Shown here: piece after piece, positions 43,373 through 43,852 of the stretch
Position numbering within the stretch: position 1 is the first letter of the stretch
How the letters are laid out: each line of letters starts with the position of its first letter
From: Escherichia phage NHEP3
Reading direction: 5' to 3' (one strand)
Length of the DNA: 44,039 bases
Sequence record: PQ511147.1
Notes under the pieces: model-generated
The model's database searches: none
What the model saw: the letters and a program-made list of their open reading frames with translations, nothing else
Told to the model about the DNA's origin: nothing
Made by a program: the position numbers and the translations under genes

Positions 43373-43469
43373 ATTTTGCGCGCATTGGTTGCCATTTTGA
43401 GTGTTTTTAGCTAGTCGTATTGGTTGCCGTGTAGTGTAAATATAGTGAATAGTTATGCAATAAAACTGC

Positions 43470-43640
43470 ATAAAGTAAGCGGGACAAAAAGCGGGACAAA
43501 CAAGGGGCGGGACAAAGCGGGACAGCACCCCCGTCCCGCCACGGATGACGCGGCCTGGCGGGGAGCGGGACAGCGGGACAGCACCCCAGTCTTTCAGACT
43601 AGACGGGGGGTCTGTCACCCCCCTCGTCTGAGACTGCATA
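43470..43640. repeat. iteron array plus conserved hairpin; copy B of the duplicated element, candidate replication origin or regulatory array
   Basis: Six direct GCGGGACA copies and the hairpin cagtctttcagactagacggggg...cccccctcgtctgagactg; near-identical to 15975-16140 with a different loop. Confidence 0.6.
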
Positions 43641-43795
43641 AAATCCAGGATTGCACAACGCACGGCAACATGATGCAAATTGCGGTCGTCGATGAACTAG
43701 GCAACCAATGCGAGTTGCAGAATGGTGGGTGAAAAATGCAGTTTGCAGTTACAGCAGATAGCGATCAACTTTTTCATACGCGTGATTATTATTGG

Positions 43796-43824
43796 TTGCA
43801 CCCACTCCAGCACCCTGCTATATT
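43796..43824 (+). promoter_or_regulatory. sigma70-like promoter (TTGCAC-N17-TATATT) flanked by two TTGGTTGCA half-sites
   Basis: Motif copies at 43792-43800 and 43824-43832; GAGGA Shine-Dalgarno and the ATG at 43853 follow. Confidence 0.55.
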
Positions 43825-43852
43825 GGTTGCATACCAACATGAGGACTGAACA

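Follow-up and report, generated by a model that had tools for sequence, protein, structure and literature searches.

The stretch of DNA analysed here (hereafter the window) comprises the 44,039 nucleotides of the record of Escherichia phage NHEP3 (PQ511147.1), in which we have studied a repeat element situated in the non-coding interval directly behind the gene of a 754-residue primase-helicase (41108-43372, plus strand). This interval (43373-43854), here named region B and proposed as an origin module, contains octameric repeats, or iterons, of sequence GCGGGACA together with a long hairpin, and a full paralogous copy, region A, lies among the tail genes (15828-16210), between the stop codon of the tail-chaperone GT product (15825-15827) and the ATG of the tape-measure gene (16211). 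Both elements have a counterpart in the record of Sodalis phage SO-1 (NC_013600), which carries repeat_region features named 'region A' (11214-11597) and 'region B' (40178-40657) and annotates their direct, inverted and palindromic repeats as well as their mutual similarity. Our search of the literature on Dhillonvirus, SO-1 and HK578 returned no origin analysis of, or experiment on, these regions, and a full-text search for the raw octamer gave only noise.

The source genome is that of a Dhillonvirus (an HK578/SO-1-like coliphage) and is complete: bases 1-127 are an exact repeat of 43913-44039, and from this terminal duplication of 127 nucleotides (nt) it follows that the genome measures 43,912 bp and is shown here circularly permuted. 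Region B is matched at 80-95% identity in 158 phage records, every one of them Dhillonvirus-like and nearly all from Escherichia and Shigella Dhillonvirus (HK578, SO-1, JL1, SSL-2009a and others), and the complete genomes among them have at least two matching places each. The core of the region was also sought in plasmids and in 5,426 E. coli genomes with no match, which argues against host or plasmid decoys and against prophage copies.

The first-pass annotation had described a non-coding gap of 480 bp behind the primase/helicase gene, and both its coordinates and its content proved right, since the open reading frame (ORF) ends at 43372 and the next ATG is found at 43855. Some records annotate hypothetical ORFs in this interval; such a coding reading was rejected because the frames are not conserved, the frame and length of the open frames varying among eight relatives and single-base insertions and deletions being present in the multiple alignment. 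Following the plus strand, the central part of region B starts with a segment of 75% A+T (43440-43478) that contains the palindrome TTATGCA-N7-TGCATAA (43453-43473) and is a candidate unwinding element and/or dimer-binding site. It is followed by four direct plus-strand iterons at 43479, 43491, 43507 and 43517 (span 43479-43524; start-to-start distances of 12, 16 and 10 bp), and by an inverted iteron on the minus strand, GTCCCGCC (43533-43540), which pairs with the third iteron (GGCGGGAC, 43506-43513) and gives way in some relatives to the perfect palindrome CGGGACGTCCCG. Next, a GC-rich spacer in which CGCGG is invariant leads to iterons 5 and 6, which abut as GCGGGACA GCGGGACA (43565 and 43573; 43565-43580, plus strand), and the array is closed by an imperfect 50-nt hairpin, CAGTCTTTCAGACTAGACGGGGGG-loop-CCCCCCTCGTCTGAGACTG (43587-43636), which yields z-scores of -3.0 to -3.8 when folded as single-stranded DNA, on either strand and in both copies. 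Further on, ACTGCATAA sits between the hairpin and the reverse-oriented TTGGTTGCC site at 43700.

The frequency of the octamer sets these two regions apart from the remainder of the genome. The window has GCGGGACA 15 times, where dinucleotide-preserving shuffles yield 2.1 ± 1.3 and none of 100 reaches 15; 12 of the 15 sites fall in regions A and B, six in each. That the iteron-plus-hairpin element exists in two copies, as the earlier annotation had stated, is confirmed by the alignment of core B (43445-43641) with core A (15952-16147), which are 82% identical over 165 nt, with 86% for the hairpin. When 19 A and B copies are aligned, the four direct iterons are kept in every one (19/19), little or no change is seen in the iterons in general, in the TGCATAAA element, in CGCGG and in the hairpin stems (TGCATAAA and the stems being the same in every A and B copy), and the variation is found in the spacers and in the hairpin loop.

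Region A is conserved across the genus as a complete module, with six iterons in the order and spacing of region B, the AT-rich palindrome and the hairpin. Its left half (15832-15941) has iterons at 15833 (+), 15848 (-), 15858 (-), 15912 (+), 15926 (-) and 15936 (-); next comes a block (15946-16031) with the palindrome TATGCA-N7-TGCATA (15961-15979) and four direct iterons (15986, 15998, 16014 and 16024), and then iterons 5 and 6 (16073 and 16080) with the invariant hairpin (16094-16142), together spanning 16073-16142. Here the inverted iterons (15848-15941) and the direct iterons (15986-16087) flank the AT-rich stretch 15946-15985. The changes private to phage Ioannina are common to its A and B copies, and the CGGGACAGCACCCC and CGGGACGTCCCG variants are found in both the A and the B lineages, which indicates, as far as the alignment can tell, that the two copies are linked by exchange or by common selection.

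Some additional features of region A were noted along the way. A third motif, ACTGCATA(A), has six of its seven copies in regions A and B (15874, 15961 on the minus strand, 16186, 16203, 43465 and 43633; the other is at 36208), and two of them precede the tape-measure start codon. The palindrome TATGCA-N7-TGCATA is contained in the AT-rich segment of both copies, and the sequence GTGAATAGTTAT, which precedes it, resembles the palindromes TGAATAGTTATTCA of phage TS6 and GTGAATAGTTCAC of Kagunavirus fEg-Eco19. Upstream, the tail-chaperone gene has a slippery site G-AAA-AAA-C (window 15500-15513) just 5' of its TAA (15511-15513), and the -1 frame runs on (15514-15827) to the stop at 15825-15827 in a classical G/GT frameshift, region A starting directly after the GT stop.

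In the protein encoded upstream of region B, Pfam recognises the RepA-type AAA_25 helicase core alone (residues 357-531, E 1.7e-19), and PHROG 3228, 'replicative helicase-primase', also matches. The N-terminal 340 residues were modelled with a predicted local distance difference test score (pLDDT) of 86, and the top match in the PDB is the archaeo-eukaryotic primase (AEP) domain of the cyanophage S-2L PrimPol (E 1.3e-5, probability 1.0), followed by the LigD polymerase and Prim-PolC; the model thus suggests an AEP primase-polymerase at about residues 1-205. The DxD (87/89), H120 and a Cys/His zinc motif (246-287) are invariant in an alignment of 43 homologues. For the C-terminal region, sequence-based methods were silent: a homology search with the last 189 residues alone gave no hits, Pfam at E <= 10 gave nothing for the C-terminal domains of three lineages, and a PDB sequence search returned nothing meaningful. 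In the AlphaFold2 (AF2) model, residues 666-740 have pLDDT values of 80-90 and a helix-helix-helix-strand-wing-strand topology, and the top Foldseek matches in the PDB are all winged helices (MarR/MepR, ArsR-like, histone H1, ScpB, Rio2, ORC; probability up to 0.99). We predict from this model a C-terminal winged helix, encoded at 43103-43327 on the plus strand, which is proposed to be the reader of the iterons.

Homologues of the primase-helicase form a graded series of identity, and in all the relatives examined a non-coding region lies directly 3' of the gene. GCGGGACA and the hairpin are retained at 66-100% protein identity; a contig whose protein is 68% identical (L127) has GCGGGACA iterons, the CGGGACGTCCCG palindrome and an CAGTCTTTCAGACTAGACGGGGGG...CCCCCCTCGTCT hairpin whose loop differs. 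In the more distant genomes (43-49% identity) the gene is without exception followed by a non-coding interval of 320-650 bp, in which the repeats are of other kinds. The six copies of GGGGGAGA in the genome of Salmonella phage TS6 all fall in the post-gene region, where the elements succeed one another as in region B: palindromes in AT-rich DNA, four repeats in direct orientation and one inverted, then a spacer, one more repeat and a hairpin. Klebsiella phage 37P2 and the contigs L130 and L132 use the repeat TTGCGAGT, that is TTGCGA(GT), and L131 and L133 use GGGAT[CG]. These four repeat types correspond to four signatures in the first residues of the predicted recognition helix, which are S/T-rich in the GCGGGACA lineages, YxKxL with TTGCGA, RRPA with GGGAT and RYKIL in the TS6-like group. 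Such a pattern is what an initiator-iteron pair should look like, to the extent that comparison of sequences can tell.

The presence of a second copy is likewise not limited to the Dhillonviruses. In 37P2 a paralogous copy of the post-helicase TTGCGA region (83% over 77 nt) is placed between a head gene and the spanin genes; since this is a different site, and TS6 has one copy of the module only, the duplication into the late region has occurred more than once. The 37P2 copies are L004:31560-31900 and L004:22245-22561, and a 37P2-like second copy is also seen at L130:22100-22190.

We have also scanned IMG/VR for GCGGGACA-N4-GCGGGACA with no constraint on the neighbouring proteins. Among the 120 loci obtained, those with at least five CGGGACA within 300 nt were taken as clustered, and an AAA_25 helicase ORF accompanies 28 of the 67 clustered loci compared with 1 of the 53 unclustered ones (Fisher p = 7e-8), the array in most of the clustered loci with AAA_25 being situated between -300 and +160 nt of the 3' end of the ORF. 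The N-terminal modules of these array-linked helicases differ (Prim-Pol, Toprim plus zinc ribbon, DnaB-N or none), and 19 of them have in common one C-terminal domain family, for which there is no Pfam model, with a conserved helix K-K-A-F-Q-R-A. Protein p101 of Rhizobium phage 16-3 carries that same C-terminal domain (E 3e-31; R-F-N-R-A), and 3' of its gene there is an array of GCGTGACA in both orientations, closed by a hairpin that has inverted repeats on its flanks (L137:3660-4080; it uses GTGACA). The helix motif is RFNRA and the repeat GCGTGACA in 16-3, against AFQRA and GCGGGACA in many metagenomic phages.

Arrays of this kind are common in the contigs retrieved: 5-16 CG(G/T)GACA octamers in both orientations, often hairpin-ended, stand at or after the 3' end of an AAA_25 gene in many unrelated viral contigs (L007, L011, L023-L025, L027, L028, L039, L049, L050, L056, L060, L072, L079, L084, L089, L106, L109, L114, L119 and L126). 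In a separate family of contigs (L030, L033, L035, L038, L040, L047, L053, L070, L087, L110 and L122), 10-11 GGGACA/TGTCCC sites form a stereotyped array of about 263 nt (e.g. L030:5890-6153) after the gene of a 659-residue P-loop protein with the Walker A motif GAGKST and no Pfam match; this protein family may be another class of initiator using the same repeat.

Taking these observations together, we regard it as fairly probable that region B is an iteron-type replication origin for the self-loading primase-helicase encoded upstream. The first-pass annotation had already proposed an origin from the position of iterons beside a primase/helicase gene, and this proposal gains from the predicted winged helix, from a repeat that changes with that domain and from the arrays found 3' of helicases elsewhere; GC skew, as discussed below, does not help it. 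From the computed repeat statistics, domain predictions, conservation, repeat/helix co-variation and association with helicase genes, we infer binding, melting, priming and origin firing in the following way. The C-terminal winged helices of the PrimPol/RepA-type helicase would bind the six GCGGGACA octamers and the inverted copy, and the protein would assemble there, probably as a hexamer; the equation of six sites with a hexamer is tempting but unproven. The assembled protein would then melt the adjoining palindrome segment of 75% A+T and/or extrude the invariant hairpin and load itself, after which the AEP domain could lay down the first primers. For the hairpin this would mean a part in loading or priming, akin to that of the single-strand initiation sites in IncQ plasmids. 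Region A is under the same constraints as region B and is thus expected to be read by the same protein; it might function as a second origin, as a cis enhancer like crr of phage P4, or as a fork-arrest site that triggers the switch from theta to concatemeric replication, like oriR of phage SPP1.

More tentatively, the Dhillonvirus element could be one branch of a widespread class of tailed-phage origins, composed of CG(G/T)GACA arrays 3' of RepA-type (AAA_25) helicase or primase-helicase genes and read by a dedicated C-terminal domain, the module having been duplicated into the structural cluster in the Dhillonviruses and, independently, in 37P2-like phages. We consider this generalisation possible yet doubtful. 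A description of such a widespread array/AAA_25 origin class was not found in the literature.

A number of observations weigh against these interpretations. The Dhillonvirus C-terminal domain compared with the array-linked domain family gives an hhalign probability of only 10%, which is not significant, so that homology between the two domains is not claimed and the shared octamer could be a coincidence or a convergence, or could reflect very old common ancestry. The correlation between recognition helix and repeat is confounded by phylogeny. The AF2 model of the C-terminal 179 residues has an overall pLDDT of 69, with low confidence in its first half, and the winged-helix matches are individually weak (E 0.06-0.5), so that they amount to a fold prediction and do not prove DNA binding. 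As for the DNA, the iteron spacing of 12, 16 and 10 bp has no helical phasing, and region B is one-sided, having AT-rich DNA on one flank and just one iteron inverted, and lacks the symmetric opposed sets of the origins of Staphylococcus aureus pathogenicity islands (SaPI). Scans for DnaA boxes and IHF sites gave one weak match each, of no weight. There is no switch of GC skew at A or B, the cumulative minimum being at about 40.6 kb; the GC and AT skews are uninformative on origins, because they track gene orientation. Lastly, both copies are situated at operon boundaries and are co-oriented with transcription, which would fit a transcriptional role too.

That last point calls for an examination of the transcription signals around region B. 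The TTGGTTGCC and TTGGTTGCA sites do not belong to the iteron system: they are members of a separate genome-wide motif, TTGGTTGC, with 18 TTGGTTGC[AC] sites at 429, 10237, 10251, 20882, 26346, 29387, 29399, 31059, 31076, 34018, 37636, 37652, 40571, 43385, 43420, 43701, 43792 and 43823. The 9-mer TTGGTTGCA has 11 sites against about 0.3 expected. The sites occupy mostly intergenic, promoter-like positions and are oriented with the downstream genes; tandem pairs are frequent, the second copy overlapping a TATATT -10 and making the palindrome TTGGTTGCAyACCAA. At the start of region B there are two plus-strand TTGGTTGCC sites (43385-43393 and 43420-43428), and the relatives retain two or three sites of this type there, in either orientation; GGCAACCAA, a reverse-oriented TTGGTTGCC, is at 43700-43708 on the minus strand. 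At the end of the region, a plus-strand promoter-like element (43792-43831) has a -35 TTGCAC (43796-43801), a 17-nt spacer and a -10 TATATT (43819-43824), overlaps the palindrome TTGGTTGCAtACCAA and includes two TTGGTTGCA sites (43792 and 43823), an arrangement that recurs at 10237/10251 and 31059/31076. Of the promoter with two half-sites previously described here, the two sites are thus present, while the promoter itself is a weak, sub-threshold sigma-70 match (8/12), and a sigma-70 consensus scan of both regions A and B found no site at threshold.

A candidate reader for this motif is encoded upstream of the primase-helicase gene, where a 109-residue protein (40768-41097, plus strand) has a helix-turn-helix (HTH) domain similar to HTH_23 and Sigma70_r4_2. 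Its HTH is nearly identical in the 68% relative, which also has TTGGTTGC, whereas relatives with GCNGCCAAC have an Xre-type HTH in its place, and the TTGGTTGC variants GCTGCCAAC, GCAGCCAAC and GCGGCCAAC accompany this switch from a sigma-70 region-4-like to an Xre-type HTH. Because the variants change with the small HTH protein, we treat TTGGTTGC as a transcriptional motif in its own right, placed on either side of the origin-like core. It probably serves a phage regulator as operator or extended -35, and the 109-residue protein is possibly its reader, not that of the iterons. As a reader of the iterons this protein is disfavoured, since it diverges strongly in HK578-like phages though the iterons stay the same, and the GGGACA arrays found in other phages have no homologue of it nearby. 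The TTGGTTGC sites, together with the promoter downstream, would then constitute a transcriptional layer distinct from the origin that they bracket.

The main alternative to an origin is that both regions are boundaries of transcription units, in which the GGGAC/GTCCC palindromes and the long hairpin would terminate or attenuate the upstream operon (the primase-helicase at B, the tail chaperone at A) and the octamers would be an operator cluster through which a phage regulator times the downstream promoter. Consistent with this, each copy is preceded by a stop codon and followed by a promoter-like element, in the direction of transcription, and the TTGGTTGC sites around B are associated with promoters genome-wide. 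Region A opens with a terminator-like palindrome in its left half, ACGGGAC-N9-GTCCCGTTTT, formed by one pair of its iterons and with a TTTT tail that no other palindrome of the region has, and in the HK578 record the corresponding site is annotated as a rho-independent terminator; region A is also followed by an extended -10, TGATACAAT (16166-16174, plus strand), upstream of the tape-measure gene, which is invariant in 7/7 region A sequences. In region B, the CS16 record labels the inverted-iteron site as a 'terminator', with no T-tract after it; indeed the hairpins of B have no T-tract, and a scan for intrinsic terminators (GC-rich hairpin plus T-tract) on the plus strand of this region was blank. 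Moreover, no GCGGGACA is found at the genome's other promoter regions, in contrast to TTGGTTGC, and a boundary function explains neither the change of the repeat with the helicase winged helix nor the CG(G/T)GACA arrays behind helicases with one C-terminal domain in unrelated phages. As the sole function of the regions we therefore consider it unlikely, although it may coexist with an origin: the two roles are compatible, the SPP1 oriR being also bracketed by transcription signals.

A further possibility is that the regions act as structured RNA in cis, the 50-nt hairpin and the upstream GGGAC stems providing a processing or stabilising site or a signal for processive antitermination, one for each long operon, in the manner of the put sites of HK022, which are processive antitermination signals. 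The two co-oriented copies are indeed inside long same-strand transcription units, the stems are invariant while the loop varies, and the folding is stronger than in shuffles (z about -3 to -3.8). The reverse strand, however, folds equally well, and searches of Rfam 15 were empty, both for the whole window at the gathering score and for region B at E <= 5. No compensatory changes are observed, with a covariation term of 0.12, a measure that is uninformative for this hairpin because its stem pairs are all invariant. The arrays of the other phages, with repeats in both orientations, fit recognition of double-stranded DNA instead, and an RNA function appears to us quite improbable. Least probable of all is a site for some other protein, such as the small terminase (a pac site) or a factor that pairs or condenses the genome: short repeated motifs are typical of terminase recognition sites as well, and in contig L116 a GGGACA cluster is just upstream of a putative small-terminase gene, but L116 ends 150 nt beyond the array and a helicase gene may lie further on, the constant neighbour across phages is the helicase and not the terminase, and in the window the terminase genes (about 4.4-6.4 kb) are some 5 kb from B and 10 kb from A, a distance that makes a packaging site unlikely.

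The organisation of the remaining genome corresponds to that of the annotated relatives. An early module on the minus strand (28.2-40.6 kb) encodes the DNA polymerase, a second helicase, nucleases and methylases, and is separated by a divergent promoter region (about 40.6-40.77 kb) from a plus-strand series that begins at 40768 with the 109-residue HTH gene and continues with the primase-helicase gene, region B, small genes, lysis, terminase, head and tail; the wrap-around of the permuted genome thus places region B about 5 kb upstream of the terminase genes. No tRNA or tmRNA was found by scanning. Three near-identical intrinsic terminators of the form AAGGGGCC-N7-GGCCCCTTTTT are present, past the spanin region (9422-9446), in the gap between the major tail gene and the tail-chaperone gene (15110-15134) and at the point where the late and early modules converge (28169-28193). 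The ORF of a 605-residue tail fibre (26344-28161) has a 105-nt unit in four overlapping copies at 26869-27120, with a 42/63-nt periodicity and 65-79% identity, probably corresponding to a repeated structural motif of the fibre shaft. Repeats rich in GAC/GAA (36822-37032 and 39947-40253) encode long Asp/Glu stretches in early proteins from minus-strand ORFs (36797-37600 and 39824-40594), and the product of the former ORF aligns with the gp2.5-like single-strand-binding protein of SO-1.

Should region B be the origin, the Dhillonviruses (a common coliphage genus, which accounts for about 150 records of the phage collection searched) would gain a defined origin and a named initiator, with uses in engineering, in plasmid-borne iterons as decoys for phage resistance and in the reading of sequencing-depth profiles. 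The wider pattern would provide a simple rule for predicting origins and the specificity of their initiators in numerous phages that are still uncharacterised: a short array of repeats directly behind the gene of a RepA-type helicase, with the C-terminal domain of the helicase varying as the repeat varies; and a module duplicated into the structural genes could couple fork arrest or the firing of a second origin to the late phase.

Several known systems have parts of this arrangement. The alpha protein of the satellite phage P4, a system also treated in PMC4234260, unites primase, helicase and a C-terminal origin-binding domain in one polypeptide and acts on octamer iterons, with two iteron clusters, ori and crr, needed in cis; it differs in having a Toprim primase and a superfamily 3 (SF3) helicase, crr is not a full copy of ori, and the iteron sequences are unrelated. 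In a lambda-type origin the iterons are inside the initiator gene, whereas here they begin 107 nt past the stop codon. The IncQ plasmid RSF1010 provides in RepA the archetype of the AAA_25 family, with the functions of RepA, RepB and RepC on separate proteins, of which RepC reads iterons of about 20 bp. Its oriV has iterons, GC-rich and AT-rich stretches, and paired hairpin single-strand initiation sites (ssiA and ssiB), one on each strand, used by a dedicated primase. The repeats described here are 8 bp and not of the 20-bp IncQ type, there is one conserved imperfect hairpin, which folds on both strands, and no RepC-like protein is found among the annotated gene products of SO-1 and HK578.

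A parallel in layout comes from the SaPI, where a C-terminal winged helix of Rep reads 6-12 short (5-6 bp) iterons immediately downstream of rep, beside an AT-rich stretch, and the helicase, sometimes fused to a primase, is itself the initiator (PMC9371898). The likeness extends to the iterons directly 3' of their own helicase gene, to the AT-rich stretch and, in region A, to opposed iteron sets around an AT-rich segment; on the other hand, SaPI Rep is AAA+/SF3-like while the helicase described here is an AAA_25 protein of RecA fold, and the one-sided array of region B, the long invariant hairpin and the two copies per genome are further differences. In plasmid pRN1 the repressor gene orf56 is followed by the gene of ORF904, a PrimPol-helicase-winged helix protein, and a terminator-like hairpin and large stem-loop origin come just 3' of orf904, a layout noted in some bacteriophages too (PMC4234260). 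The gene order is the same, with a small DNA-binding protein, an AEP PrimPol-helicase with a C-terminal winged helix (in the phage protein a predicted one) and a hairpin region. The helicase of ORF904, however, is of the SF3 type, and a stem-loop of 100 nt, devoid of iterons, forms its origin, compared with a RepA-type helicase, iterons and hairpin in our case. Less expected would be a RepA-type helicase of RecA fold that loads itself, the full second copy among the tail genes and the apparently wide occurrence of CG(G/T)GACA arrays behind RepA-type helicase genes.

For the duplicate, the best precedent is the Bacillus phage SPP1, a siphovirus of 44 kb with oriL in its replication module and oriR in a non-coding segment of the late genes, about 13 kb apart and both bound by gp38; forks that stall at oriR are proposed to bring about concatemeric replication (PMC6316719). 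SPP1 has no homology to our phage in sequence or in proteins; it relies on a separate gp38, a loader and a DnaB-type helicase, and has its oriL inside gene 38. The two phages nevertheless share the presence of two similar regions of repeats and AT-rich DNA, one in the replication module and one as a non-coding island in the late genes, here 16.4 kb apart. The pair oriL/oriR thereby gives a precedent for what was suggested earlier of the tail-operon copy, namely that it could act as second origin or as regulatory decoy, and this copy offers in turn a tractable second case for the SPP1 idea that a late-region copy of the origin controls the switch from circles to concatemers.

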